Shown: positions 9,230 to 26,224, numbered from the stretch's first letter. The stretch is DNA of 64,000 nt from an uncultured Bacteroidales bacterium (GCA_964489545.1 CAZAZE010000009.1:3035-67034); one strand, 5' to 3'. The notes: a model not told the origin generated them from the letters alone. Numbers and translations: made by a program.

Positions 9230-9263
9230 ATAAAGATGATAAATATCTCCGGATTTTTGGAGG

Positions 9264-11060: not shown

Positions 11061-11078
11061 CCCTTTTCTTTATATTAT

Positions 11079-11173
11079 TTAACCACAAAGGCGCACAAAG
11101 GATTTCACAAAGGCGCACAAAGGAGGATCTTCGCAGTACCACCTTCGTGTTCCTTCGTGTTCTTTCGTGGTAA
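11079..11173. repeat. TTAACCAC...GTGGTAA composite hairpin element between the NuoF-like and fusion genes
   Basis: Four CACAAAGG units face three CCTTCGTG/CTTTCGTG units. Confidence 0.7.
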
Positions 11174-11208
11174 AAAAGAATTAAAGCAAAGCACCAAAAA
11201 GGATAAAT

Positions 11209-14200: not shown

Positions 14201-14931
14201 ACCTGGCTTTGCTCACCGGCAAGCTGGGCAAGACCGCCAGCGGGCTGATCGCCCTGAAGGAGAAGAACAACAGCCAGGGGCTGCACGATATGGGCATCTG
14301 CCGGAATTATGGCCCCGGAGGGGTAGCGATTGAGCATGAAGATTTACGGTCGAAGATCTCAGATCTATGGAAGATGGATTCTTTCCCTGACATGGGCAGG
14401 CCGGCCATCATTGAAGGATTGGAAGCGGGATCGCTGAAAAACCTGTTCATCTTCGGCGAGGACCCGGCCGGATGCGCCGCCGACAAGGCCCGGGTTGAGC
14501 AATGGTTTGACAAAGCCGGGTTCATCGTGGTGCAGGATTATTTCATGACTGCCACCGCCGCCCTGGCCGACTTGATCCTGCCGGCCTCATTCCCGGTGGA
14601 AACCGGAGGCAGCTTCACCAATACCCAGAAAGTGATCCAGGAGTTCGGGGCGGTATTGAAGCCTAAGGTGGAAAGGGACAACCTGCGGCAACTCGCCGAT
14701 TTGCTTGGGGCGAAGGGCGTAGGGCAAAGTGGAGATCGCAGCGACGTGATGTCGGAGCTCATCACCCTGCTGCCGGAGGCAAAGGAAAGGACCTATTCGT
14801 TTGCCCCGACGGAAGGCGACAACCCGAACCGGATGTTCCGCCACGGCTGCGACGACATCGTCCGCCGTTTTGACGAAGAATTTGCACAGGCGTTTAACCA
14901 TGTAAAAGCAGGACATTATGAAAGAGTTTAA
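11209..14931 (+). CDS. Fusion oxidoreductase: 2Fe-2S ferredoxin + GltD-like NAD(P)H FAD oxidoreductase + NuoG/FdhA-like 4Fe-4S and molybdopterin-oxidoreductase-like domain
   Basis: N-terminus CNDPRLEPYTSCYVCVVEV. GltD signatures CPAGVDVQGYI, NPLPAICGRVCVRPCEVAC, KKVAVIGAGPAGLSCG and VAVIGGGNTAMDCCRT. Then CILCSRCVRIC, CESCGLCITTCP and ICNYCSVGCAISL (MopB Fe4S4). Confidence 0.85.
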   Translation: MSEKVNIILNGSIVGGIKGETILELARRHGIEIPTLCNDPRLEPYTSCYVCVVEVEGMRGLQPSCSTKISEGMRIETDNGKIRQARKTALDLLVSNHYADCIGPCKQTCPAGVDVQGYISLIEKGQYHEAVGLIKETNPLPAICGRVCVRPCEVACRRNLLDEGAPVGIDYLKRFASDIDLESPGKWKPVIKPSTGKKVAVIGAGPAGLSCGFFLQKEGHQVDIFEASPKAGGWLRYGIPEYRLPNDLLQKEVDNITEMGVRIFFNQKFGKDISYKDIQQNYDAMILGIGSQKGTLIGCDGEDAEGVFSGIDFLKNMEITGERFDFRGKKVAVIGGGNTAMDCCRTSIRCGADKVYVIYRRTEKEMPANPIEIHESKLEGVDYMFLTLPVKVVKSERGAVKSIICQKMALGEPDASGRRRPVPVEGSEFEVEVDFILAAIGQKTVPDFLEDIKASADNGEVKANRWGDLEADPDTLQTGIPSVFAAGDGVTGPATLIQAIAQGRKAAHSCDLYLKGLPVVPEQAEFFSKKDNFKPQVMADYKGYFPEQKREEMPTLDPEKRMNFDEVELGYASEAVAFHETQRCLECGCTALFTCDLKKYCTEYEADQKKLAGEFKEYHIDFRHPYIEIDNNKCILCSRCVRICREVVGANALGLVNRGFETYVAPSMGNALQDTYCESCGLCITTCPTGAITENVPFKPGPVRLEPAETICNYCSVGCAISLNHKNGFVMQVTGAEGHVNPDGNLCRYAKFGYHYLNDRRRITAPMMKVNGKFETVSWEKAYDVIAQKISAVSPDENAFFAGARLTNEEQYLVQKLARAGAKTNNVTSFHYMARGAGYRGDAIAATPFSQVKDAGKIYLVGSEINSDNAVLGFRIYNVQFAKGIPVSLVTDKTDSSMAHKVDELMVIKSYYHFIKAVNHYLASAGLHNGLFIKDNCTGYEEYKAALLQESFAELVKLAGVSELDVIDFAKRYNEEQNAIIVFSEKELSSNACTELFNLALLTGKLGKTASGLIALKEKNNSQGLHDMGICRNYGPGGVAIEHEDLRSKISDLWKMDSFPDMGRPAIIEGLEAGSLKNLFIFGEDPAGCAADKARVEQWFDKAGFIVVQDYFMTATAALADLILPASFPVETGGSFTNTQKVIQEFGAVLKPKVERDNLRQLADLLGAKGVGQSGDRSDVMSELITLLPEAKERTYSFAPTEGDNPNRMFRHGCDDIVRRFDEEFAQAFNHVKAGHYERV

Positions 14932-15373
14932 GGATACCGATTCCATTCTGCTGTTCGCGATCGAGCAGGAACAGAAAGCGGTCGATTTTTATACCGATCT
15001 GGCCCGTGAGGCCCATTCGGAGGAGATGAAGCGCGTCTTCATCGAGTTCGCCGGCGAGGAGATCAAACACAAGCAGCGGCTGACGAAGATCCGGGAAGAG
15101 GGCGTGTTCACCATGCCCATGGAGCGGGTCGCCGATCTGAAGATCAGCGATTACGTGGTCGAGGTGAAGGCCGGCGGCAAGCTCAGCTACGAAGAGGCGC
15201 TGGTGCTGGCCATGAAGCGGGAGAAGGCCGCTTTCCGGTTGTACAGCAGCCTGGCGGAACGCGCGCCGAGCCCGGAGGTGAGAGATATCTTCCTGGCCCT
15301 GGCCCTGGAAGAATCGCGGCATAAGCTGCGGTTCGAGGTGGAGTACGACGAGTACGTGCTGCGGGAGAACTGA
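14918..15373 (+). CDS. Rubrerythrin-like ferritin-fold diiron protein (no rubredoxin domain)
   Basis: LLFAIEQEQKAVDFY...FAGEEIKHKQ...LALALEESRHK E-x-x-H type motifs. The start overlaps the upstream stop by 14 nt. Confidence 0.7.
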   Translation: MKEFKDTDSILLFAIEQEQKAVDFYTDLAREAHSEEMKRVFIEFAGEEIKHKQRLTKIREEGVFTMPMERVADLKISDYVVEVKAGGKLSYEEALVLAMKREKAAFRLYSSLAERAPSPEVRDIFLALALEESRHKLRFEVEYDEYVLREN

Positions 15374-15375
15374 GG

Positions 15376-15457
15376 CATTTCGCATTGCGCAGTGTGGATT
15401 TCGCATTTCGCAGTATCATTGAGAAATGAGAAATTTGTATTGCGAAATGAGCAATAG
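15376..15457 (+). terminator. Imperfect hairpin of opposed heptamer units (ATTTCGC versus GAGAAAT/GCGAAAT) after the rubrerythrin-like gene; possible terminator
   Basis: catttcgcattgcgcagtgtggatttcgcatttcgcag ... gagaaatgagaaatttgtattgcgaaatgagcaat begins 3 nt after the stop codon. Confidence 0.4.
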
Positions 15458-15496
15458 TTCATTATCTTTGTATCGAACTATTGCTTATTTTATATT

Positions 15497-16000
15497 ATGT
15501 CTCCACGGTTAAAAACATTCAGAAAAGTTCTAAGTCCGCCGCCTGTTAAGGGTTTTAAGCCTTATGGCCATAATGGTGATGCCAGGAACACAGAGCCCGT
15601 AAACCTTTTATTTGAAGAATACGAAGCATTGCGGTTGTGCGATTATGACCGGTGCAACCATCAGCAGGCGTCGATGATCATGCGGGTTTCCCGGCCGACA
15701 TTTACCCGGATATATGCTTCGGCCTTGCAGAAGATCTCCGCGGCCTTTGTCGAGGGGAGGCAGATCAGCATTGAAGGAGGTAAGGTTTATTTTGACAGCG
15801 ATTGGTATCGGTGTTCCTCCTGCAGCTGTTATTTTAACCATCCGGATAAGACCATTGAAATGAAAAATTGCCCCCTTTGCGGCGACGGGAATGTCCTTCC
15901 CTTTGATCTGACTTCAGTCGATGAAATATCGGATGAGGGTCAATGTCAGGGACCTCAGCGCAGGCAGTACAGAGGAGGTAGGAGAATCAGGAAATCATGA
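15497..16000 (+). CDS. DUF134 (UPF0251) putative DNA-binding protein with a C-terminal CxxC...CxxC zinc ribbon
   Basis: FKPYG...LLFEEYEALRLCDYDRCNHQQASMIMRVSRPTFTRIYASALQKISAAFVEGRQISIEGG, then CSSCSC...CPLCG. Confidence 0.8.
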   Translation: MSPRLKTFRKVLSPPPVKGFKPYGHNGDARNTEPVNLLFEEYEALRLCDYDRCNHQQASMIMRVSRPTFTRIYASALQKISAAFVEGRQISIEGGKVYFDSDWYRCSSCSCYFNHPDKTIEMKNCPLCGDGNVLPFDLTSVDEISDEGQCQGPQRRQYRGGRRIRKS

Positions 16001-16338
16001 AAGTCGCCATCACTTCAACGGGAAACTCGCCCGAATCGTTCCTGGACCGGCGTTTTGGCCGATGCGCCTGGTTCATCATTTACGACCCGCAGGACGGCTC
16101 CATGGAAATCATCCCCAATCCCAACAGGGATGCGGAAGAACAGGCCGGGCCGGCATCGGTGCATCTGATCGCGGGGAGGAATGCCGGGCGCATCATCTCC
16201 GGTGAATTTGGACTCAGGATCAAAGATCTGCTGGACAGCATGAAAATACAACTGATCGTCATCAAAGACCGAAAGATCAGGATATCGGAGATCATAGAAA
16301 TGTTAAATCGCAAAAACAAGAAAGATGCCCGGACTTAA
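15997..16338 (+). CDS. NifB/NifX-family (dinitrogenase Fe-Mo cofactor biosynthesis-like, PF02579-type) protein
   Basis: MKVAITSTGNSPESFLDRRFGRCAWFIIYD... is a typical N-terminus. ATGA overlap with DUF134. Confidence 0.8.
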   Translation: MKVAITSTGNSPESFLDRRFGRCAWFIIYDPQDGSMEIIPNPNRDAEEQAGPASVHLIAGRNAGRIISGEFGLRIKDLLDSMKIQLIVIKDRKIRISEIIEMLNRKNKKDART

Positions 16339-16528
16339 CGGAACAGGCCCTGAGGGCAAAGGAAGCCGCTCGGGGCGCGGGCTGGGGCGTTGCAGCGACG
16401 CTTCGCCGGAAGAAAAGATTGAGCAGCTGGGTAAGGGAATGGGCCGCAAGCGCCATTCCGGTAAAGGTAAGGGAAAGGGCCGGCGGTTGAAGAGCGGCCT
16501 CAAAAATGATAAACAAGCAAAGGAGTGA
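16325..16528 (+). CDS. DUF5320-family small protein (copy 1)
   Basis: MPGLNGTGPEGKGSRSGRGLGRC resembles the DUF5320 N-terminus (MPrgDGTGPmG.GP.TGRg.G.C). Confidence 0.6.
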   Translation: MPGLNGTGPEGKGSRSGRGLGRCSDASPEEKIEQLGKGMGRKRHSGKGKGKGRRLKSGLKNDKQAKE

Positions 16529-16786
16529 ATGATGCCTGGATTAAACAGACGCGGACCTATGGGGCAAGGCCCCATGACCGGCAGGAAAATGGGGCGGTGC
16601 ACGAATTTCGGTGAAGGCCGGAAAAAAGATGCATTGCCTGAAAAAAACGAGAACGACACCGAACTTCCGGATGATTTTCCCGGCCGGGGCTATGGATTTG
16701 GCCGTGGATTCCGGTTTGGACGAAGATGGGGATTTGGATTAGGTCGTGGAGGCCGGGGGCGAGGAATGGGAAGGAACGATGAATAA
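16529..16786 (+). CDS. DUF5320-family small protein (copy 2) with a Gly/Arg-rich tail
   Basis: MMPGLNRRGPMGQGPMTGRKMGRC, then GRGYGFGRGFRFGRRWGFGLGRGGRGRGMGRN. Confidence 0.6.
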   Translation: MMPGLNRRGPMGQGPMTGRKMGRCTNFGEGRKKDALPEKNENDTELPDDFPGRGYGFGRGFRFGRRWGFGLGRGGRGRGMGRNDE

Positions 16787-16823
16787 GAACAGCCGCATAT
16801 TATGAGGCTTTAATCAATGCCAG

Positions 16824-17267
16824 ATGGAAAAAATTAAAGTAGGAATCATTATCTGCGACCGATACCGTAGTTGCGCGGGGGGAAAGTGTTTCAGGTCGCT
16901 TCAAAACCGGGAAGGAGCCTTTGCCATATATAAGGGCAAAGAGGTTGAGATAGCAGGGTTTACAAGCTGCGGGGGCTGCCCGGGCGGCAATATTGAATAT
17001 GCACTGGAGGAAATGAAGAAAAATGGAGCGACACATGTTCACTTTGCCACCGGGTTCCTGGTCGGTTATCCGCCTTGCCCCTATATGGAGCATTTTGAAA
17101 AATTTATCCGGGAAAAATACGGGATGGAAGTCGTTTTTGGTACCCATCCCATACCCCAAAAGTATTATCTGACGCACACCCGGATGAATACGTGGGATTC
17201 GGAATTTCTGCAGCGAGCCATCCAGCCAACCCTGAATGATGAAAGGACGAGATTGAGTTATGACTGA
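16824..17267 (+). CDS. CGGC-domain protein
   Basis: GFTSCGGCPGGN motif, plus N-terminal IIICDRYRSCAGGKCF. Confidence 0.75.
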   Translation: MEKIKVGIIICDRYRSCAGGKCFRSLQNREGAFAIYKGKEVEIAGFTSCGGCPGGNIEYALEEMKKNGATHVHFATGFLVGYPPCPYMEHFEKFIREKYGMEVVFGTHPIPQKYYLTHTRMNTWDSEFLQRAIQPTLNDERTRLSYD

Positions 17268-18300
17268 TGGGAGGCCATTGAGGATTGCCATTGCCAGCGG
17301 CAAGGGAGGGACGGGGAAGACTTCCATCACGGCATCCCTGGCCATTTTAGCCGGCAAAGATGCGGTGATTGCCGATTGTGACGTGGATGCAGCCAATATG
17401 CACCTGCTGTTGAAACCCGATTATCTTTTTGATTATGAATTTTTCAGCGGCGTTCTCCCCTCAATTGACGAAGATTTATGCTCCAGGTGTGGTCGATGCG
17501 CTGAGGTATGCCGGTTTGATGCCATTCATCATTTTGACGGCCATTACAGAATCAATAATCTGGATTGTGAGGGATGCGGCTACTGTGCACTTGTATGCCC
17601 GGAACAGGCGATCAGCATGCACGAACGAAAAACAGGGCATGTTTATCTTTCGAAGACCCGGACTGGTCATTTTCTGGCGCATGCCCGGCTGGATCCTGGC
17701 GCTGAAAATTCAGGGAAACTGGTTGCCCGGGTCAGGAATGAATCGAAATCATTTGCTAAAGCTGAACATAAACAATATATCCTGGTAGATGGCTCTCCCG
17801 GGATAGTATGCCCGGTGGTCTCATCACTGTCGGGGGCTGACTATGTCATCCTGGTTACAGAGCCGTCTTTGTCGGGACTTCACGACCTCCGGCGGGCTTA
17901 TTCCCTGGTCAGCCGTTTTCGGATCAAGGCCGGATGTATCATCAATAAGAGTGACCTGAACCCGGCCATTACTGATGAAATTCATTCTTTTCTCCGGGAG
18001 ATGGACATCGAACACCTGGCTGATTTAGGCTATGATTCCGATTTTACCAAAGCGATGGTCGAAGGGAAAACAATCGTTGAATGGCAATCAACATACAGGG
18101 GCGCCGGGACCGCCACCGCCCAGAAACTTTCTGCCTTGAAGCCGGATGTGCTGATCACCGGAAATGGTCCCGGAGTATCTGCTTTTAGCGCGTTGAAACA
18201 AATGAATATCAAAATATATGTGGATGCGCATAATTTGACTGTGCGTGAAGCTTATGCACGCTACAAAGAAGGACGGCTTAGTGTCATGGCTGAACAATAA
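17260..18300 (+). CDS. MinD/Mrp-superfamily P-loop ATPase with inserted 2x[4Fe-4S] ferredoxin domain and a C-terminal NifX-like extension
   Basis: IAIASGKGGTGKTS deviant Walker A; CSRCGRCAEVC and CEGCGYCALVCP. The C-terminus (DVLITGNGPGVSAFSALKQMNIKIYVDAHNLTVREAYARYKEG) resembles the NifB/X/Y fold. Confidence 0.8.
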   Translation: MTDGRPLRIAIASGKGGTGKTSITASLAILAGKDAVIADCDVDAANMHLLLKPDYLFDYEFFSGVLPSIDEDLCSRCGRCAEVCRFDAIHHFDGHYRINNLDCEGCGYCALVCPEQAISMHERKTGHVYLSKTRTGHFLAHARLDPGAENSGKLVARVRNESKSFAKAEHKQYILVDGSPGIVCPVVSSLSGADYVILVTEPSLSGLHDLRRAYSLVSRFRIKAGCIINKSDLNPAITDEIHSFLREMDIEHLADLGYDSDFTKAMVEGKTIVEWQSTYRGAGTATAQKLSALKPDVLITGNGPGVSAFSALKQMNIKIYVDAHNLTVREAYARYKEGRLSVMAEQ

Positions 18301-18309
18301 AAAAACCTC

Positions 18310-19263
18310 ATGGAAAATATCATTTATGGACCGGTGCCTTCCCGAAGGTTAGGCAAAAGCCTGGGGGTGAACAATATACCTCCAAAGGTTTGTTCTTATA
18401 GCTGTAAATACTGCCAGGTAGGAATAACACGGAAACTGGAAATCAAGCGGCAAGACTTCTATTCTCCTTCAGAGATTGCCTTCCAGGTCAGGAAGAAGTT
18501 GATGACGCTGTCAAAAGAAGATGTTCCGGATGTCATTTCCATAGTTCCCGATGGCGAGCCGACATTGGATATTCATTTGGGGGAACTGATTGACAGGCTG
18601 GGTTCGTTTGGCCTTCCGGTGGCTGTATTTTCCAATAGTTCCCTTTTACACCTCAAAGACGTTCGCGACGAGTTGAAAAAGGCAGATCTTGTCTCATTAA
18701 AAGTTGATTCGGTGAACGGATTTACCTGGAAGAAGATCAACAGGCCCCATAAAGAACTGGAAATTAAATCAATCCTGGACGGGATCCGTGAATTTTCCGG
18801 AACATTTCGGGGGCACCTGATAACCGAAACGATGGTGATCGAGTATTTGAATGATTATTATGAAGAAATGGAATCGGTTGCCTGTTTTTTACAGGATATC
18901 CGGCCGGAGAAGGCCTATATCGCGATACCCACGCGTCCGCCTGCCGTGGAAGGCATCAGGGGAGCCCATGAGTCTTCGATCATGCTGGCCTATGAAATAT
19001 TCCTTCAACATCAGCTGGATACCGAGCTCCTTACTGGTTATGAAGGCAACGCCTTTGCCGCTTCCGGAAATTTTCAGGAAGATATTTTAAGCATCACCGC
19101 CGTGCACCCCATGAGGAAGGATGCTGTCATGGAATTGATGAAGCGATCGATGGCTGCGGAGGATAGTCTTAATGCGCTGATTGATAATGGATTATTGGTT
19201 AAAGTGAATTATGGCCCCAACGAGTATTATTTACGGCGGTTCAGTGAACAACACATTGCCTGA
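18310..19263 (+). CDS. Radical SAM protein
   Basis: GPVPSRRLGKSLGVNNIPPKVCSYSCKYCQVG contains CxxxCxxC. Confidence 0.8.
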   Translation: MENIIYGPVPSRRLGKSLGVNNIPPKVCSYSCKYCQVGITRKLEIKRQDFYSPSEIAFQVRKKLMTLSKEDVPDVISIVPDGEPTLDIHLGELIDRLGSFGLPVAVFSNSSLLHLKDVRDELKKADLVSLKVDSVNGFTWKKINRPHKELEIKSILDGIREFSGTFRGHLITETMVIEYLNDYYEEMESVACFLQDIRPEKAYIAIPTRPPAVEGIRGAHESSIMLAYEIFLQHQLDTELLTGYEGNAFAASGNFQEDILSITAVHPMRKDAVMELMKRSMAAEDSLNALIDNGLLVKVNYGPNEYYLRRFSEQHIA

Positions 19264-19319
19264 GTGATATGGTCCCCGATTTTTCCATAAATAACTCCGA
19301 CTCCGGGCAACCGGGACCA

Positions 19320-19829
19320 ATGGGATATACCCATGTGTATACCGGCAATGGCAAAGGAAAAACGACCGCGGCCCTGGGCCTGGCACTGAGGGCTGCAGGT
19401 TCCGGAATGAAAGTCTTCATTGCCCAGTTTGTCAAGGGGATGCATTATGGGGAACTGGATTCCATTCAGCACATTCCCAATATCACCCTGAAACAATACG
19501 GACGGGACTGTTTTATTCACCAGGCGCCTGAGCCCGAGGATGTTGAAGCGGCAAGGGCGGGACTGCAGGAGGTCAGTGAGCGGATTAAAAATCATGATGA
19601 TGACCTGGTGATCCTGGATGAAGTGTGTATCGCCCTTTATTTTCATCTTTTTGAAACAGTTGAGGTTATTGAGCTCATCCGGTCGAAGCCCCGTGCAATG
19701 GAGCTCGTCCTGACCGGGAGATACGCACCCGTGGAAATCATTGAAATAGCCGACCTGGTCACGGAGATGAAAGAAGTCAGGCATTATTTCAGCAAGGGGA
19801 TTATGGCCCGAAAGGGCATAGATTATTAA
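19320..19829 (+). CDS. CobA/CobO/BtuR-type ATP:corrinoid adenosyltransferase-like P-loop protein
   Basis: GYTHVYTGNGKGKTTAALGLALRAAGSGMKVFIAQFVKG...LVILDE...LVLTGR. An alternative upstream start exists at 19269. Confidence 0.8.
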   Translation: MGYTHVYTGNGKGKTTAALGLALRAAGSGMKVFIAQFVKGMHYGELDSIQHIPNITLKQYGRDCFIHQAPEPEDVEAARAGLQEVSERIKNHDDDLVILDEVCIALYFHLFETVEVIELIRSKPRAMELVLTGRYAPVEIIEIADLVTEMKEVRHYFSKGIMARKGIDY

Positions 19830-19843
19830 TAAAATCAAACACA

Positions 19844-21028
19844 ATGAACACGAAAGACAAGGGGATCAACACAAAACTGATCCATGCGGGCGCGTTTGAA
19901 GATGAGTTTGGCAGCGCAACTGTGCCTATTTATCAGACATCCACCTTTAAATTTAAAAGTGCCCAACATGGGGCGGATTGCTTTTCCGGGAAAAGCGACG
20001 GGTATATTTACACACGTATTGCCAACCCTACTATCAGGGCATTTGAGCAGAATGTTGCCGAACTGGAAAATGGTTACGATGGCATTGCAACCAGTTCGGG
20101 CATGGCAGCCATCAGCAGTGTTTTTATGGCATTGCTTGGCGGAGGCAGCCATATGATCAGCTCTGATGCTGTATATGGCCCGGTGAGGGGGCTGATTGAG
20201 CAGGATTTTTCGCGGTTTCATGTTGCGGCGACCTTTGTGAATACTTCAAACATCGACGAGATCATTGGGGCACTGCGCCCGGAGACCAAACTGCTTTATG
20301 TTGAAACGCCGGCTAACCCGACGATGAACCTGACGGACCTGGCCGCCTGCCATCGGGTTGCCCGGGAGCATCATTTACTCCTGGTGGTGGACAACACATT
20401 CTGTTCCCCTTATTTGCAAAAACCCCTCGATCTGGGGGCGGATGTCGTGTTGCATTCCATCACCAAGTTCATCAACGGTCATGCCGATATCGTCGGGGGC
20501 ATCGTTGTTGCAAAAGAACGGGAACTTAATCAAAAGATACGGCATTCGATGGTATATCTCGGATGCAATATGGACCCCACGCAGGCTTTCATGGTATTGC
20601 GCGGGATCAAGACCCTGGGGATCCGCATTGAAAGGGCGCAGGAAAATGCCCAGGCCATTGCCCATTTTCTGGAAAAACATCCAAAAGTGGCCTGGATCAA
20701 ATACCCGGGGCTGAAATCTCATCCTCAGCATGAGCTGGTCAAGAAACAAATGCGCGGACCGGGTTCCATGATGAGCTTTGGTTTGAAAGGCGGTTATGAA
20801 GCCGGGCGCGCGCTGATGGATAATGTGCACCTGGCGTTACTGGCCGTATCCCTCGGCGGAGTCGAAACCCTGATCCAGCATCCGGCGTCGATGACCCATG
20901 TGGCGATCAGTAAAGAGAACAAGCTGGCTGCTGGCATCACCGACGACCTGGTCAGGTTTTCCGTTGGCATTGAAGACGTTGAAGATATTATTCATGATCT
21001 GGAACAAGCTTTAAATAAAATTAATTAA
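19844..21028 (+). CDS. Cys/Met-metabolism PLP enzyme, methionine gamma-lyase-like
   Basis: TKLIHAG...TVPIYQTSTF...SITKFINGHADIVGG (PLP lysine). Length 394 aa. Confidence 0.85.
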   Translation: MNTKDKGINTKLIHAGAFEDEFGSATVPIYQTSTFKFKSAQHGADCFSGKSDGYIYTRIANPTIRAFEQNVAELENGYDGIATSSGMAAISSVFMALLGGGSHMISSDAVYGPVRGLIEQDFSRFHVAATFVNTSNIDEIIGALRPETKLLYVETPANPTMNLTDLAACHRVAREHHLLLVVDNTFCSPYLQKPLDLGADVVLHSITKFINGHADIVGGIVVAKERELNQKIRHSMVYLGCNMDPTQAFMVLRGIKTLGIRIERAQENAQAIAHFLEKHPKVAWIKYPGLKSHPQHELVKKQMRGPGSMMSFGLKGGYEAGRALMDNVHLALLAVSLGGVETLIQHPASMTHVAISKENKLAAGITDDLVRFSVGIEDVEDIIHDLEQALNKIN

Positions 21029-21031
21029 GAA

Positions 21032-22393
21032 ATGAAAAACACAGATGTTTTAATTATTGGCGGAAGTGCAGCCGGAATGGTCACTGCATTGACCGGGAAA
21101 ATGCATTGGCCCGGGAAGGACTTTATTTTGGTAAAAAAAGTTAAGGATGTCATGGTTCCGTGCGGCATTCCTTATATTTTCGGTACACTGGGCGACAGCG
21201 GAAAGAACATCATGCCTGTGGACAAGATGATGGAAAGCAATGGTATCTTTTCACTGCTTGATGAAGCTGTGAAAATTGAAACGGATCGTAAGGTGGTAAG
21301 CTTTGCCAGCGGTGAGGAAATTGCCTACCATAAGCTGGTCATTGCGACCGGTTCAACGCCGGTGAAGCCAAGATGGTTGGCAGGCGCAGAGCTGGATAAT
21401 GTTTTTGTGATACCGAAAGACAGGGATTATCTTGATGATATGTTCGGGAAACTGGAGGGGGTTAAAAACATTGTTGTAATTGGCGCCGGCTTCATCGGCG
21501 TGGAATTATCAGATGAACTGAATAAGAAAGGATATCATGTTACCCTGATCGAGAAATTGCCCCATATCCTGAATCTTGCATTTGATGTTGAATTGTCTGA
21601 AATCATTCATGATATGCTGGTGAAACGTGGGGTGAATATTATTACCGGGATAGGGATCAAAAAAGTTTTGGGAAAAGAAAAAGTAGAGTCGATAGAGTTA
21701 GAAAATGGTCAAAGGCTTGAAATGGATGCCGTAGTGCTATCTGTCGGATATAAGCCTAACTCTGAACTGGCAAGGATTTCTGGAATTTATGTTGATGAGG
21801 ACAATTTCATTGCCGTGGATGAGTATATGCGAACGCATGTCCCGGATGTTTTTGCTGTGGGGGATTGCGCACAGAAGCGCGATTTTGTCACCAGAAAAAG
21901 AGTGCCCACCATGCTGGCATCAACAGCATGCGCAGAAGCCCGTATTGCCGGCATGAATCTGTTTAATCTGCATGTGGTTAAAACATTCAGCGGCACCATC
22001 GCCATCTATTCGACAGCGATTGGGGATACGGGTTTCGGCACTGCCGGGGTTACGGAAATCAGAGCCAAAGAGGAGGGAATTGATACTATTACAGGTTTGT
22101 TTGAAGGGGTGGACCGCCATCCGGGCAATCTTCCAAATACGCATAAGCAAATTGTTAAGCTGATTGCAGCTAGAAATTCCGGTGTGATCATCGGTGGTGA
22201 AGTGCTTGGTGGGTTCGAAGCAGGTGAGCTGACCAATGTGATCGGTTTGGCGATTCAAAATCGCATGTCGGTCAATTCTTTCCTGACCATGCAGATTGGC
22301 ACTCATCCTTGCCTGACGGCTTCTCCCGCTGCCTATCCGTTAATCAAGGCGGCTGAAAAAATTGCTATTGATATTTACAGGAGAATGAATTGA
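21032..22393 (+). CDS. FAD-dependent pyridine nucleotide-disulfide oxidoreductase (NADH oxidase / CoA-disulfide reductase family)
   Basis: DVLIIGGSAAGM, single Cys in VPCGIPYIFG, IVVIGAGFIGVE, FAVGDCA. Confidence 0.85.
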   Translation: MKNTDVLIIGGSAAGMVTALTGKMHWPGKDFILVKKVKDVMVPCGIPYIFGTLGDSGKNIMPVDKMMESNGIFSLLDEAVKIETDRKVVSFASGEEIAYHKLVIATGSTPVKPRWLAGAELDNVFVIPKDRDYLDDMFGKLEGVKNIVVIGAGFIGVELSDELNKKGYHVTLIEKLPHILNLAFDVELSEIIHDMLVKRGVNIITGIGIKKVLGKEKVESIELENGQRLEMDAVVLSVGYKPNSELARISGIYVDEDNFIAVDEYMRTHVPDVFAVGDCAQKRDFVTRKRVPTMLASTACAEARIAGMNLFNLHVVKTFSGTIAIYSTAIGDTGFGTAGVTEIRAKEEGIDTITGLFEGVDRHPGNLPNTHKQIVKLIAARNSGVIIGGEVLGGFEAGELTNVIGLAIQNRMSVNSFLTMQIGTHPCLTASPAAYPLIKAAEKIAIDIYRRMN

Positions 22394-22400
22394 AAGGATA

Positions 22401-22437
22401 CAGGGGGCTTTGCATCGTAGTGCTGAAAAGTCCCCTG
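22401..22437. terminator. Hairpin between convergent genes (possible bidirectional terminator)
   Basis: cagggggcttt - 15 nt - aaagtcccctg (one mismatch). Confidence 0.45.
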
Positions 22438-22439
22438 GT

Positions 22440-23048
22440 TTATTTTTTTAAGATTTTACCTGAAAACAGGGTCTGGACTTCATTACTCACCCTGAAATAA
22501 TATAGTCCTGAGGACAGTGCATCTCCCTGGATGATGAATTCCTGGCCGGTGGTAGACATTTCTATGACTAAATTGCCTGAAACTCCTGCTATCATCAGGT
22601 TGTGTTCTGATTTTTCCGGGTTATCAAATTTTAGACGGGTAGATTCATCAAATGGATTGGGGGCCAGCAGGTAGCCTTGTTGGTTATATTGTATGTACTC
22701 CACCATTTTCGCAGAGGTAAATCCATATTGGCCGAGCTGCAGGCGGTAATAAGTTGTCCGGTTGGGAAGGGGCAGCGAATCGCGGAACTCGTAGGTGATG
22801 GATTCGCTGGGGCTGCCGCAGATGCCGCCGATGAGCCCGATCCGCTGAAAACCCCCATCAGGGCGCTCCGACCGCTCGACGTAGGTATCCTGGCAGGTAT
22901 TCCCCGCGGTGATGGTCCACCGCAGGAACACGGTTTCCTCCAGTGGTGTGGCGATAAACTGCGACAGGATGACGTCGGCTTCCTGCGCCGGGGCGGCGAG
23001 GGAAAGAAACAGGGAGCAGGATAGTATGGCGAGTCGTTGATGGACCAT
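22440..23048 (-). CDS. Small secreted protein with a T9SS C-terminal sorting domain
   Basis: Signal peptide MVHQRLAILSCSLFLSLAAPAQE (ATG at 23048). C-terminus LAPNPFDESTRLKF...GLYYFRVSNEVQTLFSGKILKK. Confidence 0.7.
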   Translation of the reverse strand: MVHQRLAILSCSLFLSLAAPAQEADVILSQFIATPLEETVFLRWTITAGNTCQDTYVERSERPDGGFQRIGLIGGICGSPSESITYEFRDSLPLPNRTTYYRLQLGQYGFTSAKMVEYIQYNQQGYLLAPNPFDESTRLKFDNPEKSEHNLMIAGVSGNLVIEMSTTGQEFIIQGDALSSGLYYFRVSNEVQTLFSGKILKK

Positions 23049-23088
23049 GGCACTTAAACAAATGAACAAAGAAAATGTTTTGACCAGC

Positions 23089-23196
23089 AGGGACTCCAAC
23101 AGGGACTCCGTCCCTGTCGGTAATTTATTAATTATCAACTCTCTTAAAATTAGATATTCAAGGGACGGAGTCCCTTATCAAAAGGACGGAGTCCCT
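23089..23196. promoter_or_regulatory. Three copies plus one half-site of the 15-bp palindrome AGGGAC-GGA-GTCCCT in a divergent promoter region
   Basis: agggactccgtccct 23101-23115 (inverted centre), agggacggagtccct 23161-23175, aggacggagtccct 23183-23196, half-site agggactcc 23089-23097. Confidence 0.55.
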
Positions 23197-23245
23197 TTCA
23201 CCAACTTTTTTCTTAAATTTGCTTTATAGATCTAACGAATTCCCC

Positions 23246-26224
23246 ATGCCCTTCTCCAATATCGCCTACCGCGCGCCAAAGTATTATTTCAGCGACACCT
23301 CCTTCCAGAAGCTGATGCGCCGCAGGATCTACCATGTCCTGCTCATATCCAGCGCCTATGACGCGTTCGTGCTCGAAGACGACGGCCGCATCGACGAGCA
23401 GATCTTCATCGAATACGTCAGCCTCAACCTGCGCTACCCGCCGCAGTTCATCCTCGCTTCTTCCGAGAAAAAGGCATTCGACATCCTCCATGATGAAAAG
23501 ATCGACCTCATCATCGTCATGCTCAGCTCGGAAGAGATGGATACTTTCAGCCTCGCCGAGAAGATCAAGGGGAAATACCCGGCTATCCCGATCGTGGTGC
23601 TGACGCCGTTTTCGCGCGAGGTGACCGTGAAGCTGAACGACTCCAGCAAGAGCGTCATCGATTACGTGTTCAGCTGGCTGGGCAACGCCGACCTGCTGCT
23701 GGCCATCATCAAACTGATCGAAGACAAAATGAATGTCGACCATGACATCCGCGAGGTCGGGGTTCAGGCTATACTGCTGGTGGAGGACTCCATCCGGTTT
23801 TATTCCAGCTATCTGCCCAACATCTACAAGATCATTTTCAAGCACTCCAAGGACTTCATGACGGAAGGCCTCAACGAGCACCAGATGATGCTGCGCATGC
23901 GCGGCCGGCCGAAAATCCTGCTGGCCACGACCTATGAGGAGGCGCTGGGACTTTATGAGAAATACAAGCGCAACCTGCTGGGCATCATTACCGACATGAG
24001 CTATCCGCGCAACGGCAAACAGGAAAAATACGCCGGCGTCAAGCTCTGCGAAAAAGTGCAGCGCGACGATCCGTTCATGCCCATCCTGCTGCAGTCGTCC
24101 GACAAGGAGGGCGAGGACCTGGCTGCAAGGTTGAAGGTTGGATTCATCAACAAAAACTCCAAGACCATTTCGGTCGAGTTGAAGAACTATATCCGGGAGT
24201 ATTTCGCCTTTGGCGATTTCGTGTTCATCGATCCGGAAACCGGCGATGAGATCGCCCGGGCCACCGACCTGAAGAGCCTGCAGGAACTGCTCTTCCAGGT
24301 TCCGGACGAGGCGCTGCGGTACCATCTGAGTCTCAATCAGTTGTCGAAATGGCTCCGCGCCAGGGCCTTGTTCCCCCTGGCCGAAATGCTGGTCGACATC
24401 ACACTGGACGACTTCAACGACCTCGATGAAGTCCGCCGCTACCTGTTCGATTCCATCGCCAGTTTCCGCATCAGCAAATCCCGGGGTGTCATCGCCCAGT
24501 TCCGCCGCGAACGCTTCGACGAGTACCTCACCTTCACCCGCATCGGCGAAGGATCCATCGGCGGCAAGGCCCGCGGCCTGGCTTTTCTGGATATGCTGAT
24601 CAAAAGGAACCGAATCCTGGAGAAATGGCCGGGCGTATACATCACCATTCCCCGCACGGTCGTCCTGTGCACGGATGTCTTCGCCGAGTTCATGGAGGAA
24701 AACAACCTCTACGAGATCGCCCTATCAGACCGCAGCGACGAGGAGATCCTGAAGGAGTTCGTCCATGCCCGGCTTCCGTTCCGGATCCATGAGGACCTCT
24801 ACACCCTGATCTCATATGTACGGAACCCCATCGCGGTGCGATCGTCCAGTCAGCTGGAAGACTCTCATTATCAGCCATTTGCTGGTATTTATTCGACCTA
24901 CATGGTGCCTTATGTGATGGATAACGAACGGTTGATGATGGAGATGCTGAGCAACGCCATAAAGAGCGTGTACGCCTCCACGTATTTCAAGGCCAGCAAG
25001 GCATACATGACCGCCACATCCAATATTATCGACGAGGAAAAGATGGGCATCGTGATGCAGACCGTCGCCGGGACGAAATACGGCCACCGGTTTTATCCGT
25101 CGATCTCCGGGGTCGCGCGGTCGATCAACTTCTACCCGCTGGATCCGGAAAAGCCGGAGGATGGCGTGGCCAGCGTGGCGCTCGGGCTCGGGAAATACAT
25201 CGTCGACGGCGGGCTGGCCCTGCATTTCAGCCCGAAGTACCCGAAAAGGGTGTTGCAGACGTATTCCCCGGAAGCCGCGCTTCGGGAAACGCAAAAGTAT
25301 TTCTACGCGCTGGATATGCATCCCGAGACCTTCAAGCCGGATATCGACGACGGGATCAACATCCTGAAACTACCCGTCCGCGAAGCGGAAGCGGACGGCT
25401 CCCTCAAATGGGTGGCTTCCACCTATGACCTGCAGAACGGCGTGCTCCGCGACGGGGTGAATTACGACGGAAAGAAGCTCATCACATTTTCGAATATTTT
25501 AAAGCATAATGTGTTTCCCCTGGCTGAGATCCTCCAGACCATCCTGGAGATCGGGCAGAAGGAGATGGGAAAGCCCGTAGAGATCGAATTTGCGGTCGAC
25601 CTGAACCGGCCGGCGAACGATCCGAAGATCTTTTATTGTCTCCAGATCCGGCCGATCGTCGACAACAAGGAGACCATCAGCGACGACCTGGAGAAGGTTG
25701 ATCCTAAAGACACGATCATCTATTCCAAATCAGCGTTGGGCAACGGTATCATTTCCGATCTGTGCGACCTGGTGTACGTTAAACCCGAATCATTCAACCC
25801 GGCGAAGAACACCGAGCTGGCCGAGCGGATGGGGGTGATCAACGAGCAGTTCCGGCAGCAGAATAAGAATTACATCCTGATCGGCCCGGGACGCTGGGGC
25901 AGCCAGGATCCCTGGCTCGGCATCCCGGTCAAATGGCCCCAAATCTCAGCGGCGCGTGTGATCGTGGAATCGGGGCTGGAGAACTACCGAATCGACCCCA
26001 GCCAGGGGACGCATTTCTTCCAGAACCTGACTTCGTTCAGGGTGGGCTATTTCACAGTCAACCCCTACATGAACGACGGATATTACGACCTGGAATACCT
26101 CAAGGCGCAACCTGCCGTTTATGAGGACGAATTCATCCGCCACATCCGGTTCGAAAAGCCTTTGATGGTGGAGATTGACGGGCGCAAAAACCTGGGCGTT
26201 ATTTTCAAAATCCAGGATCAATAA
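23246..26224 (+). CDS. Degenerate receiver + receiver + PEP/pyruvate-binding (PPDK_N, ATP-grasp) domain protein
   Basis: ILLVEDS...LLGIITDMSYP...PILLQSS (REC-like); GGKARGLAFL and IAVRSSSQLEDSHYQPFAGIYSTY (PPDK_N). No phosphohistidine swivel motif seen. Confidence 0.8.
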   Translation: MPFSNIAYRAPKYYFSDTSFQKLMRRRIYHVLLISSAYDAFVLEDDGRIDEQIFIEYVSLNLRYPPQFILASSEKKAFDILHDEKIDLIIVMLSSEEMDTFSLAEKIKGKYPAIPIVVLTPFSREVTVKLNDSSKSVIDYVFSWLGNADLLLAIIKLIEDKMNVDHDIREVGVQAILLVEDSIRFYSSYLPNIYKIIFKHSKDFMTEGLNEHQMMLRMRGRPKILLATTYEEALGLYEKYKRNLLGIITDMSYPRNGKQEKYAGVKLCEKVQRDDPFMPILLQSSDKEGEDLAARLKVGFINKNSKTISVELKNYIREYFAFGDFVFIDPETGDEIARATDLKSLQELLFQVPDEALRYHLSLNQLSKWLRARALFPLAEMLVDITLDDFNDLDEVRRYLFDSIASFRISKSRGVIAQFRRERFDEYLTFTRIGEGSIGGKARGLAFLDMLIKRNRILEKWPGVYITIPRTVVLCTDVFAEFMEENNLYEIALSDRSDEEILKEFVHARLPFRIHEDLYTLISYVRNPIAVRSSSQLEDSHYQPFAGIYSTYMVPYVMDNERLMMEMLSNAIKSVYASTYFKASKAYMTATSNIIDEEKMGIVMQTVAGTKYGHRFYPSISGVARSINFYPLDPEKPEDGVASVALGLGKYIVDGGLALHFSPKYPKRVLQTYSPEAALRETQKYFYALDMHPETFKPDIDDGINILKLPVREAEADGSLKWVASTYDLQNGVLRDGVNYDGKKLITFSNILKHNVFPLAEILQTILEIGQKEMGKPVEIEFAVDLNRPANDPKIFYCLQIRPIVDNKETISDDLEKVDPKDTIIYSKSALGNGIISDLCDLVYVKPESFNPAKNTELAERMGVINEQFRQQNKNYILIGPGRWGSQDPWLGIPVKWPQISAARVIVESGLENYRIDPSQGTHFFQNLTSFRVGYFTVNPYMNDGYYDLEYLKAQPAVYEDEFIRHIRFEKPLMVEIDGRKNLGVIFKIQDQ

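Follow-up and report, generated by a model that had tools for sequence, protein, structure and literature searches.

Related systems

The described system closest to the locus analysed here is the ORP complex of Desulfovibrio (PMC6345978, PMC8359166), in which small NifX-domain (Nitro_FeMo-Co) proteins are associated with MinD-like P-loop ATPases that possess two 4Fe-4S ferredoxin motifs apiece. The system is confined to anaerobes, its genes are clustered, and a dedicated regulator answers to the reduced state. The complex is described in PMC6345978 as "putatively involved in cell division", its function being unsettled, and work cited there assigns a Mo-Cu-sulfide cluster to the orange protein. 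A NifX-type domain (IPR003731) binds Fe and S in IssA, the thioferrate storage protein of Pyrococcus furiosus, whose disordered, cationic, Gly- and aromatic-rich tail hosts the only Cys of the protein, and has been proposed to wrap anionic thioferrate (PMC5524996). Nitrogenase cofactor assembly combines three parts that all have a counterpart of their kind in the locus: a radical SAM enzyme with a NifX domain (NifB), a NifX-domain carrier (NifX) and a P-loop ATPase of the SIMIBI class that holds Fe-S clusters (the Fe-protein NifH).

The locus lies in a window of 64,000 nucleotides from an uncultured Bacteroidales bacterium (GCA_964489545.1 CAZAZE010000009.1:3035-67034), an anaerobic member of the Bacteroidota. 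The original prediction, made from the sequence alone, held that its first gene families lack an established function, and left out the published work on ORP (PMC6345978, PMC8359166). To judge from its sequence, the core of the locus (NifX-domain protein, MinD ATPase) is of the Desulfovibrio ORP type. A P-loop and two CxxCxxCxxxC motifs are found, in agreement with what has been published on Orp3/Orp4 and Orp8 (PMC6345978), and NifX-domain segments match the orange protein structure 2wfb. In contrast, MrpORP is missing (22-36 bits with the NCBIfam model, against a cut-off of 450), no sigma-54 activator occurs among the ORFs of the block, which carries a DUF134 protein and paired palindromes instead, and a single chimeric MinD gene stands for the Orp3/Orp4 pair. 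DUF5320, CGGC, radical SAM, CobO, methionine gamma-lyase (MGL)-like and CoA-disulfide reductase (CoADR)-like genes are additions, of which the consulted portions of the ORP papers make no mention; a literature search for MGL-like or CoADR-like genes in an ORP-type cluster found no report. The elements described here for the first time are the paired-palindrome candidate operator, a chimeric, eroded copy of the cluster, and a contrast in GC3.

The likeness to IssA is one of composition against the published description: a tail-less NifX-domain protein is followed at once by two small DUF5320 proteins having the character of the tail, and MTH1175, the IssA-type model structure in PMC5524996, is among the nearest solved relatives of the NifX-domain protein. 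Yet, domain and "tail" are separate genes, and DUF5320 proteins, unlike the IssA tail, have a conserved N-terminal motif of their own, and often a coiled coil; NifX-DUF5320 fusions were sought, and none was found. As to nitrogenase, NifEN and NifDK genes are missing, and the radical SAM enzyme is not NifB, which was rejected for lack of a NifB family match and of auxiliary-cluster cysteines, NifB being just one of many generic structural matches. Moreover, unlike the hosts of nitrogenase assembly, most carriers of the cluster are not known to fix nitrogen.

The operon and its candidate operator

The features of the locus are as follows.

15434..15488, + strand, promoter and candidate operator, read from the sequence and aligned with relatives
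15434-15437, + strand, putative -33 element, TTTG
15447-15462, palindrome 1, ATGAGCAATAGTTCAT
15463-15470, + strand, putative -7 box, TAtcTTTG
15475-15488, palindrome 2, GAACTATTGCTTAT
15497..16000, + strand, DUF134 protein, 167 aa (Pfam PF02001, 69 bits, residues 4-97)
15997..16338, + strand, NifX-domain (Nitro_FeMo-Co) protein, 113 aa (Pfam PF02579)
16325..16528, + strand, DUF5320 small protein a, 67 aa (Pfam PF17253, 45.5 bits)
16529..16786, + strand, DUF5320 small protein b, 85 aa (Pfam PF17253, 33.2 bits)
16824..17267, + strand, CGGC-domain protein, 147 aa (Pfam PF08821, 105 bits)
17260..18300, + strand, chimeric MinD-type P-loop ATPase, 346 aa (Pfam CbiA, two Fer4, partial Nitro_FeMo-Co)
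18310..19263, + strand, radical SAM enzyme of an uncharacterised family, 317 aa (Pfam PF04055)
19269..19829, + strand, CobA/CobO-type ATP:corrinoid adenosyltransferase, 186 aa (Pfam PF02572, 216 bits)
19844..21028, + strand, methionine gamma-lyase-like PLP enzyme, 394 aa (Pfam PF01053, 501 bits)
21032..22393, + strand, CoA-disulfide reductase/NADH oxidase-like flavoprotein, 453 aa (Pfam Pyr_redox_2, Pyr_redox, Pyr_redox_dim)
22401..22449, + strand, intrinsic terminator, 11-bp G+C-rich stem followed by a U-run

Ten close-packed ORFs fill exactly positions 15497-22393 on one strand. The tight packing and the gaps of -14 to +37 nt had been correctly anticipated, but the genes are ten rather than eleven (the families listed in the original prediction themselves total six plus four), and the overlaps three (-4, -14 and -8) rather than four, the remaining junction being a zero-gap abutment. 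Pfam returned all the families named, both in the first part of the block (DUF134, Nitro_FeMo-Co, two DUF5320, CGGC, CbiA/MinD with two Fer4) and in the later genes (Radical_SAM, CobA_CobO_BtuR, Cys_Met_Meta_PP, Pyr_redox_2). Since the gaps are so short, the only promoter found lies 5' of DUF134, and a terminator follows the last gene, the block reads as a single transcription unit, extending from a Bacteroidota-type promoter to a predicted strong terminator hairpin (RNA fold of -22.7 kcal/mol, z = -3.8 against shuffles), which a simple scan misses because its loop is long. Overlapping start and stop codons, and the abutment, suggest coupled translation of several gene pairs. As predicted, the block is poorer in GC (0.488) than its flanks (0.586 upstream, 0.52 downstream). 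Third codon positions sharpen the contrast considerably, GC3 being 0.47-0.67 within the block, 0.77-0.90 in the four upstream genes and intermediate downstream (T9SS-tail gene 0.60, PPDK_N 0.78, Crp 0.67).

Paired palindromes (ATGAACAATAGTTCAT) flank the promoter, whose -33 and -7 elements were assigned on what we take to be the Bacteroidota consensus. The architecture is common to ten aligned Bacteroidota loci, and cognate palindromes are present in other phyla. Palindrome sites are enriched 17-fold upstream of DUF134, and site pairs 24-28 bp apart are confined, among all loci examined, to promoters of such clusters. In a close relative (L083) the pair is kept upstream of DUF5320 and radical SAM genes, although DUF134 is missing from the locus. 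The palindromes of the window carry 1 and 2 mismatches, and its -33/-7 spacing exceeds that of relatives by 4-5 nt; relative to the consensus, half-sites and spacing of the candidate operator are degraded.

The paired palindromes are likely the operator of DUF134, which would be the protein that binds the motif. DUF134 features an N-terminal helix-turn-helix, a Cys motif (C106, C109, C125, C128) at positions conserved in 13 homologues from two phyla, and an Arg/Gly tail; the public gene call begins 59 codons too late. That DUF134 is the cluster's own putative regulator, as originally proposed, gains support from the conserved paired palindrome at the promoter, the binding itself being presumed.

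The nearest solved structures to the NifX-domain protein are TM1290, MTH1175 and the Desulfovibrio gigas orange protein (2wfb, E 7.7e-5). DUF5320 proteins a (pI 10.6) and b (pI 11.1, with a Gly/Arg/aromatic repeat tail) have one Cys each, and both are absent from the gene calls of public contigs. The CGGC protein is 71-81% identical to orthologues found in the equivalent position, ahead of MinD genes.

The radical SAM enzyme has its CxxxCxxC motif at C28/C32/C35 and no other conserved Cys; its C-terminal domain is helical and closes with a beta hairpin. All NCBIfam families score well short of their cut-offs, and the matches of the structure model are of a generic radical SAM kind alone (TM about 0.5). 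The family numbers at least 1201 50%-identity clusters at E<=1e-30.

CobO and Salmonella CobA (1g5r) can be aligned over their whole length, and CobO exceeds the NCBIfam cut-offs (NF004637, 208 against 185; TIGR00708, 176 against 168).

Methionine gamma-lyases and CoADR-type reductases are both able to release sulfide or thiols. The predicted PLP enzyme proved indeed methionine gamma-lyase-like: characterised methionine gamma-lyases are its nearest kin, and account for all of its fifteen best solved relatives (top score 430 bits). Similarly, the predicted single-Cys disulfide reductase has one conserved redox residue, Cys44, aligned with the Cys of solved relatives. It shares single active-site Cys and fold with CoADR, CoA-persulfide and NAD(P)H sulfur reductases (Pyrococcus CoADR, NSR, Npsr), its best solved relatives being NoxA-3 (6pfz), Pyrococcus CoADR (4fx9/3kd9) and CoA-persulfide reductase (8a56); no rhodanese domain was found in the flavoprotein. 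Since both proteins score below the NCBIfam equivalog cut-offs (486 bits against 550 for TIGR01328; 223 bits with the CoADR models), their substrates were left unassigned.

Recurrence and erosion of the cluster

Radical SAM, CobO, MGL and CoADR-like genes belong with the DUF134 set, as originally proposed: they reside 3' of it in seven or more further Bacteroidota loci, surrounded by unrelated flanks. The full order is DUF134-NifX-DUF5320x2-(ferritin/IscU)-NifX-ARMT1-CGGC-MinD-MinD-NifX-ferredoxin-rSAM-CobO-MGL-CoADR (rSAM, radical SAM), and the full-order set is present in five loci (L084, L085, L167, L168, L169) with differing flanks. In 29 of 80 genomes, which cover at least 12 phylum-level groups among Bacteria and Archaea, a member of the radical SAM family is found no more than 10 kb from a MinD-ferredoxin pair; the reverse scan gave a radical SAM match in 17 of 80 MinD-anchored metagenome loci, many of which are short. 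In other phyla, too, NifX, MinD or CGGC genes repeatedly have radical SAM, CoADR-like and MGL-like neighbours. Recurrence of the gene set in many genomes and phyla places the arrangement far outside what chance would give. CobO directly follows radical SAM, with gaps of +78 to -8 nt, in the window and six loci (L012, L084, L085, L086, L167, L168), and is separated from it by one methyltransferase gene in L169; among the versions examined, it is seen in Bacteroidota only.

The genes found around radical SAM include IscU in 13 loci, Fur in 14 and FeoB in 7, and Bacteroidota versions host ferritin, Zip and 1-Cys peroxiredoxin inside the cluster. Neighbours such as IscU, Fur, FeoB, ferritin and peroxiredoxin point to a putative role in iron-sulfur handling.

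The copy in the window is eroded. A MinD protein with ferredoxin motifs had been predicted as of COG1149 type; MinD and Fer4 domains are there, but the gene is not a plain COG1149 one, being an in-frame chimera that ends in a NifX fragment. Alignment to the separate genes of L084, L085 and L086 indicates that the opening ~13 residues are similar to paralogue A, that paralogue B makes up the body, which carries two 4Fe-4S motifs, and that residues ~278-346 correspond to the final two-thirds of a NifX-domain protein. The partial Nitro_FeMo-Co match places residues 277-336 on profile positions 36-93, and residues 276-342 match 2wfb at 49-114. The chimeric gene is also found in two other assemblies. 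IscU, ferritin, the second MinD paralogue and an intact third NifX are missing from the window, whereas fuller versions have IscU, second MinD and third NifX; for this reason, the window may hold a decaying copy of the cluster, and the "self-contained" cofactor system of the original prediction, deprived of the IscU scaffold, one MinD paralogue and the third NifX, is an overstatement. In L083, only DUF5320 and radical SAM are left.

Possible roles of the cluster

We tentatively regard the block as a DUF134-controlled operon, a reduced and probably horizontally acquired Bacteroidota version of a widespread ORP-type cluster specific to anaerobes, handling an inorganic iron-sulfur (metal-sulfur) species. 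A metal-sulfur role had been predicted, and fits the recurrence of IscU, Fur, FeoB and ferritin, and the DUF5320-IscU fusion ORF found in L169; the building of a cofactor was put too strongly, however, and while gene content, the limits of the operon, its synteny and the DNA motif are shown by the sequences, every biochemical step of the scheme is inferred. DUF134, sitting on the two palindromes that bracket the -7 box, would keep its operon repressed, a metal or redox signal at the Cys site lifting the repression. The NifX-domain protein would hold Fe-S species, and the two very basic Gly/Arg/aromatic DUF5320 proteins might act as detached "tails" stabilising these anions, as has been proposed for the built-in tail of IssA. 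CGGC protein and MinD-ferredoxin ATPase could then transfer or insert the cluster at the expense of ATP and low-potential electrons, and sulfide and thiols would be provided or recycled by MGL-like enzyme and CoADR-like flavoprotein. Radical SAM and CobO, true and recurrent members of the cluster, have no place in this model.

Alternatively, and this appears rather unlikely, the operon may be a functionally mixed regulon for low redox and oxygen or sulfide stress, in which DUF134 senses redox via its Cys site, and ORP-like proteins, thiol reductase, C-S lyase, adenosyltransferase and radical SAM are co-switched without forming one pathway. Order and membership do vary: CoADR precedes the MinD genes in L127 and L151, CobO comes right after MinD/NifX with no intervening radical SAM in L089 and L127, and insertions separate CobO from MGL in L167 and L169. 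1-Cys peroxiredoxin, catalase, cytochrome bd, ferritin and rubrerythrin occur in or beside the cluster, and all but ferritin fit such a regulon as well as they fit iron-sulfur handling. Desulfovibrio orp operons are expressed at low redox potential only, under a regulator sensing Fe-S (PMC8359166). However, the same accessory families return beside NifX, MinD or CGGC in distant phyla more than a lineage-specific regulon leads one to expect (CoADR-like genes in Omnitrophota, Hadesarchaea and Thermoplasmatota, MGL beside CGGC in Eubacteriales and Aminicenantales), and the suggested translational coupling also tells against this reading.

It is improbable that the cluster deals with thiometallates (Mo/W, possibly Cu), its NifX-domain proteins binding thiomolybdate or thiotungstate in sulfidic habitats, and feeding or protecting molybdopterin enzymes, such as one encoded just upstream. 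Thiomolybdate is the Mo species of sulfidic water (PMC11484787), and orange protein is among the nearest solved relatives of both NifX-domain segments, but these matches are weak (E about 1e-4). Here, as in L083 and L086, the block lies 3' of a NuoE/NuoF/GltD-formate-dehydrogenase-like molybdopterin gene set, yet no molybdopterin gene adjoins the cluster in L084, L085, L167, L168 and L169. MobB-like P-loop genes, assigned by eye, adjoin radical SAM in four loci from Dehalococcoidales or Chloroflexota (L020, L023, L042, L061); the recurring neighbours are nonetheless iron genes (IscU, Fur, FeoB, ferritin), not genes for molybdate transport or Moco.

A corrinoid module, in which the product of CobO is an adenosylated corrinoid used by radical SAM or by some other enzyme of the cluster, and low-potential electrons for the Co(II) to Co(I) step come from the MinD-ferredoxin ATPase, is very improbable. 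CobO, a bona fide CobA-family member mostly adjacent to radical SAM, is the sole support for the corrinoid-related cofactor of the original prediction, and is missing from all non-Bacteroidota versions. No cobalamin-binding domain was found in the radical SAM enzyme by Pfam or in the structure model, no other cobalamin gene in the clusters examined (L084, L085, L167, L168, L169), and no Rfam family, cobalamin riboswitch included, at gathering score in 10500-24000.

Finally, it is hardly credible that DUF5320 peptides are radical SAM substrates in a RiPP-like pair, as the small size, conserved N-terminal motif and single conserved Cys of DUF5320, and the 29-nt distance at which DUF5320 and radical SAM survive behind the conserved operator in L083, might hint, given that SPASM and auxiliary-cluster cysteines, and recurrent proteases or exporters, are missing, that the modelled C-terminal helices precede the hairpin, in an order unlike that of the peptide-recognition element (RRE), that radical SAM accompanies few MinD/DUF5320 loci (the 17 of 80 above), and that DUF5320 is a huge, widespread family (>7000 90% clusters), many members of which have a coiled-coil end.

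Composition and limits of the block

The block consists of ten ORFs, all on the + strand between 15497 and 22393, and the eleven genes of the original prediction are a miscount. The families then named for the single genes are upheld by Pfam and NCBIfam.

Features of the block and of the region upstream
8550-15373, GC3 0.77-0.90: upstream operon, NuoE-like, NuoF-like, GltD/formate-dehydrogenase-alpha-like fusion (1240 aa) and rubrerythrin-like proteins
ORF 1, + strand: DUF134 protein, 167 aa
ORF 2, + strand: NifX-domain protein, 113 aa
ORFs 3 and 4, + strand: DUF5320 proteins, 67 and 85 aa
ORF 5, + strand: CGGC-domain protein, 147 aa
ORF 6, 17260-18300, + strand: MinD-type P-loop protein with two 4Fe-4S motifs, 346 aa
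ORF 7, + strand: radical SAM (rSAM) protein, 317 aa
ORF 8, + strand: CobO, 186 aa
ORF 9, + strand: Cys/Met-metabolism PLP enzyme, 394 aa
ORF 10, + strand: pyridine-nucleotide-disulfide oxidoreductase, 453 aa

The junctions measure, in order, -4, -14, 0, +37, -8, +9, +5, +14 and +3 nt; the four overlaps formerly reported are thus a second miscount, there being three (of 4, 14 and 8 nt) and one junction of 0. Counts aside, the earlier observation stands, including the lower GC content of the block relative to its flanks (0.488 vs 0.586 upstream and 0.52 downstream). GC3 runs from 0.47 to 0.67 in the block and from 0.77 to 0.90 in the four genes upstream of it, and is intermediate in the genes downstream (0.60, 0.78, 0.67). 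The low values fit either a foreign origin or weak expression. The sequence recurs in two public contigs (L081 and L082) from two sequencing runs, identity covering 11.8-29 kb of the window, and T9SS sorting domains, GldN and the best rSAM matches mark it as Bacteroidota. Public gene calls in these contigs miss both DUF5320 ORFs, and start DUF134 59 codons and rSAM 64 codons late, cutting off the start of the DUF134 domain and the CxxxCxxC motif, respectively.

A 123-nt gap separates the block from the upstream high-GC3 set, in which the rubrerythrin-like gene overlaps the 1240-aa fusion gene by 14 nt, and which may encode an electron-bifurcating molybdopterin oxidoreductase. The gap hosts a Bacteroidota-type promoter (TTTG at 15434-15437, TAtcTTTG at 15463-15470), its elements being named after the -33/-7 consensus of Bacteroidota, and two palindromes upstream of DUF134, one on either side of the -7 box. 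Between the rubrerythrin-like gene and the promoter lie, in the interval 15377-15449, three direct copies of ATTTCGCA (at 15378, 15398 and 15405) and the inverted copy TGCGAAAT (at 15441). The repeats have no counterpart in relatives, and this interval accounts for the -33 and -7 elements being spaced more widely in the window than in relatives.

At the other end, 7 bases past the last stop codon, a terminator hairpin is formed by an 11-bp G+C-rich stem and a U-run (RNA fold of -22.7 kcal/mol, z = -3.8), and the gene that follows is convergent, on the opposite strand. Given the tight packing, the promoter upstream, the terminator and the convergent neighbor, a single ten-gene transcription unit is the simplest reading of the sequence. 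A generic scan for sigma-70 promoters and terminators gave counts no better than those of shuffles and missed the terminator, and was replaced by sequence reading and locus comparison. The Rfam scan of the 10.5-24 kb region of the window found no riboswitch or RNA family, which weakens the reading of control by a cobalamin or SAM riboswitch.

Linkage across phyla and the reduced copy in the window

The neighborhood of rSAM was surveyed in 80 genomes of many phyla by tblastn and unbiased clustering of all ORFs.

Gene families within 10 kb of rSAM (loci out of 80)
MinD-ferredoxin genes, nearly always paired: 29
NifX-domain genes: 28
Metallo-beta-lactamase-fold gene: 25
SAM methyltransferase: 17
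Fur: 14
IscU: 13
DUF134: 12
DUF5320: 12
ARMT1-like: 9
ArsP_2-type permease: 8
FeoB: 7
CoA-disulfide reductase (CoADR)-like flavoprotein: 7
Thioredoxin: 6
CGGC: 5
Methionine gamma-lyase (MGL)-like: 3

MinD-bearing loci occur in Bacteria (Bacteroidota, Omnitrophota, Chloroflexota, Aminicenantes, Bipolaricaulota, Atribacterota, Deltaproteobacteria, a Kuenenia, Eubacteriales) and in Archaea (Thermoplasmatota, Bathyarchaeia, Hadesarchaea). In a reverse, MinD-anchored scan of metagenomes (80 loci, many of them short) the MinD paralogue pair was found in 68 loci, NifX in 40, IscU in 20, a match to rSAM in 17 and the CoADR-like flavoprotein in 7.

The synteny comparison put forward earlier as a way to refute the linkage of the downstream genes with the DUF134 set was run here, and found them in the same order in Bacteroidota loci with unrelated flanks. 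Loci L084 and L085, from Lentimicrobium-type genomes whose flanks do not resemble those of the window, read DUF134-NifX-DUF5320-DUF5320-ferritin-NifX-ARMT1-CGGC and then MinD-MinD-NifX-ferredoxin-rSAM-CobO-MGL-CoADR; L167, L168 and L169 are variants of this set in which IscU replaces ferritin. CobO lies directly 3' of rSAM in the window and in L012, L084, L085, L086, L167 and L168; they overlap, by 8 nt, in L168, and L169 has one methyltransferase gene in between. CobO was found in Bacteroidota versions only, and orthologues are 40-84% identical to the window proteins. The MGL-like and CoADR-like families adjoin CGGC, NifX or MinD genes in distant phyla too. Both rSAM and CobO are genuine members of the cluster.

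Some variants carry additional arrangements. A continuous ORF of L169 (4013-4660) fuses DUF5320 with a NifU_N/IscU scaffold domain; the corresponding genes are adjacent but separate in L167 and L168. Cytochrome bd oxidase genes reside inside the cluster in L168 (6693-9369) and beside it in L169 (19389-20951), and in L168 are followed just downstream by catalase, Fur, ferritin and 1-Cys peroxiredoxin genes. Such neighbors suggest a tie to oxygen exposure.

The copy in the window is reduced. Ferritin or IscU, the middle NifX, ARMT1 and the small ferredoxin are absent. In relatives a pair of MinD paralogues, present in L084, L085, L086, L167 and L168, precedes a stand-alone NifX-domain gene of 112 aa; the window has a single hybrid gene. 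This ORF (17260-18300) is an in-frame chimera, in which the start (~13 residues) resembles paralogue A, paralogue B (57-64% identity) makes up the body, and the last ~69 residues correspond to the C-terminal two-thirds of the NifX gene. Comparison with sister loci implies that two in-frame deletions would account for it. An assembly artefact is unlikely, since the same gene was found in contigs of two other sequencing runs, possibly from the same population. Two loci with the flanking genes of the window exhibit other states: L086 has an intact MinD pair and NifX and no CGGC, and L083 (9698-10945) is down to the palindrome pair, a single DUF5320 gene and rSAM, DUF134 and the other cluster genes being absent. 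The locus is thus evolutionarily unstable, rSAM and DUF5320 being its most persistent parts. Reduced and partly fused, the window's copy is a poor experimental model, and the fuller Lentimicrobium-type loci are better suited.

Promoter palindromes and DUF134

The promoter region upstream of DUF134 aligns base for base in ten Bacteroidota loci, the consensus being TTTG, a few bases, ATGAACAATAGTTCAT, TAtcTTTG, four bases and GAACTATTGTTCAT. GAAC-N4-GTTC sites, exact or with 1 mismatch, are enriched 17-fold in the 150 nt upstream of DUF134 (5.4 per kb vs 0.31 per kb across all loci), and in all the loci examined sites paired at a spacing of 24-28 bp were found only at these cluster promoters. 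Related palindromes, such as ATGGACATAAGTTCAT and ATGAGCATATGCTCAT, occupy the same position in Chloroflexota and other phyla. In L083 the pair lies upstream of DUF5320-rSAM, though DUF134 is absent from the locus. The window's own sites have 1 and 2 mismatches, and a motif search of the 64-kb window found no further operator sites beyond chance.

DUF134 matches PF02001 with 69 bits (cut-off 27) over residues 4-97, the helix-turn-helix region; after it comes a conserved Cys (or Cys/His) site with four ligands. Being the sole factor common to nearly all palindrome-bearing loci, and endowed with a helix-turn-helix, DUF134 is the likely binder of the paired palindromes. Sites overlap the promoter spacer and the start region, and DUF134 is therefore probably an autorepressor. 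The idea that DUF134 regulates the cluster thus holds up through the conserved palindromes. A defined 16-bp candidate operator and a candidate regulator make binding testable, and the regulon mappable.

Relation to the ORP complex and possible functions

The core of the block matches the published ORP (orange-protein) complex of Desulfovibrio. There, MrpORP supplies clusters to the MinD-like Orp3 and Orp4, which each have two 4Fe-4S motifs and are purified together with the NifX-type Orp8; expression of the ORP operons is confined to low redox potential, and their function is still called putative (PMC6345978, PMC8359166). The window shares with this complex the MinD-like P-loop ATPase with two ferredoxin motifs and the single-domain NifX-type protein related to the orange protein. 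In contrast to the side-by-side ATPase paralogues of ORP, it has one hybrid gene. It lacks MrpORP (Mrp/NBP35 plus a NifX-type domain), matches to NF041136 of 22 and 36 bits falling below its cut-off of 450. ORP operons are described with the activator OrpR and a sigma-54 promoter, whereas the ten ORFs of the block all belong to other families, none encoding an enhancer-binding protein, and the promoter is of the Bacteroidota -33/-7 type with palindromes. The block is a variant of the ORP-type cluster with a different regulator, a candidate operator and a recurrent accessory set, in decayed form in the window.

The alignment of the MinD-type protein shows no variation in the Walker A motif GKGGTGKT or in either of two CxxCxxCxxxC motifs, and Pfam identifies CbiA and two Fer4 domains. 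The NifX-domain protein (PF02579, 45 bits) matches the orange protein structure 2wfb (E 7.7e-5), as does the NifX fragment fused to MinD (E 4.7e-5), and has the IssA-type structure MTH1175 among its best solved relatives. NifX-type domains are described as binding FeMo-co precursors, a Mo-Cu-sulfide cluster, Fe-S clusters or thioferrate (PMC6345978, PMC5524996, PMC8351635). IssA, the thioferrate storage protein of Pyrococcus furiosus, has the same globular domain (IPR003731/NifX-type), and on the same chain a cationic, Gly/aromatic-rich C-terminal tail; the window NifX stops after a short Lys-rich stretch, and tail-like sequences are found in the separate DUF5320 genes. DUF5320 proteins carry a conserved N-terminal motif (MPGxDGTGPxGxGPxTGRxxGxC) with one Cys and a basic Gly/Arg/aromatic repeat, often with a coiled coil, and in chemical character they resemble the tail of IssA (PMC5524996). 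A NifX-DUF5320 fusion, which would back the idea of a split IssA, was seen neither in the 120 best DUF5320 matches nor in any locus examined, and a literature search under the DUF names found almost nothing.

The enzymes of the second half are defined to different extents. CobO exceeds both curated cut-offs (NF004637, 208 vs 185; TIGR00708, 176 vs 168), its P-loop GNGKGKTTAA aligns with Salmonella CobA, and it is predicted to be an ATP:corrinoid adenosyltransferase of the CobA/CobO type. The PLP enzyme is nearest to methionine gamma-lyases in both NCBIfam and solved structures, and stays under the equivalog cut-off (TIGR01328, 486 bits vs 550). CoA-disulfide reductases and NADH oxidases are the nearest relatives of the flavoprotein, which likewise stays under the equivalog cut-offs (TIGR03385/NF007123, 223 bits vs 579 and 458) and whose single Cys44 falls, in the alignment with NoxA-3 6pfz, in the region of the active-site Cys. 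The rSAM protein matches PF04055, with C28, C32 and C35 (CxxxCxxC) invariant and no conserved cysteines beyond these canonical cluster ones, and its model matches radical SAM cores. Large as the family is, with at least 1201 clusters at the 50%-identity level (E<=1e-30), it is highly conserved, at about 50% identity between Bacteroidota and Archaea. In NCBIfam the best match is viperin (35 bits vs a cut-off of 180), TYW1 and MoaA score 19 bits against cut-offs >280, and NifB gives no match. Attempts to name it by NCBIfam, PDB sequence search, AlphaFold model and Foldseek led only to generic radical SAM cores, and neither NCBIfam nor the PDB search nor Foldseek found a close characterised relative. 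Among 150 diverse representatives the one fusion is an rSAM-TrmO_N protein (P0281 of the representative library), which was not relied on, as it lacks the N-terminal cluster motif and holds only part of the family sequence. TrmO_N-only genes lie near rSAM in 6 of the 80 genome loci and at the end of L167, and may be a pointer to an rSAM partner, or an artefact.

The genes that recur nearby, namely IscU, Fur, FeoB, ferritin and Zip, favor iron-sulfur over molybdenum chemistry. Together with the ORP-like core and the likeness of DUF5320 to the IssA tail, they lead to the proposal that the cluster would serve iron-sulfur storage and delivery, the MGL-like and CoADR-like enzymes acting as putative suppliers of sulfide and thiol. 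The strongest rival is a mixed stress regulon, because gene order and membership shuffle between loci, and peroxiredoxin, catalase and cytochrome bd are found nearby. A thiometallate role is possible, and less favored than iron-sulfur storage and delivery; the corrinoid and the peptide-modification (RiPP) readings are weak. A bolder version of the iron-sulfur proposal is a split, ATP-driven storage and release machine, in which tail-less NifX and free DUF5320 "tails" would be IssA in parts, the tightly linked rSAM-CobO pair would perform a novel adenosyl-based modification or maturation of metal-sulfur species, and DUF134 would be a metal or redox switch. We deem it improbable; if true, it would reveal a new cofactor pathway common to many anaerobic Bacteria and Archaea. 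As for the original interpretation of the block as a self-contained system handling a metal-sulfur or corrinoid-related cofactor under its own regulator, it is partly supported: the linkage and the idea of a dedicated regulator hold up, and the mechanism is a proposal.

Few anaerobe-specific gene sets of unsettled function are as widespread as the NifX/MinD-ferredoxin (ORP) cluster, and the routes by which anaerobes store and deliver iron-sulfur clusters are poorly known. A conserved rSAM family travelling with the cluster, recurrent sulfur and thiol enzymes and a testable idea on DUF5320 provide handles; a long-unsolved gene set is made more testable, and no new principle is shown.

Other regions of the window deserve mention. 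Three giant proteins of 2146, 2232 and 2165 aa are encoded on the - strand at 32367-58771. The first two carry PKD-like repeats and T9SS C-terminal sorting domains, the 2232-aa one also a beta-helix, and are probably secreted or surface-bound; the 2165-aa protein matches only fn3 and Ig-like domains. On the - strand at 3189-5727, a DUF4007 protein adjoins a 489-aa protein with an HNH_2 nuclease domain, a pair that may be related to defence or DNA modification.
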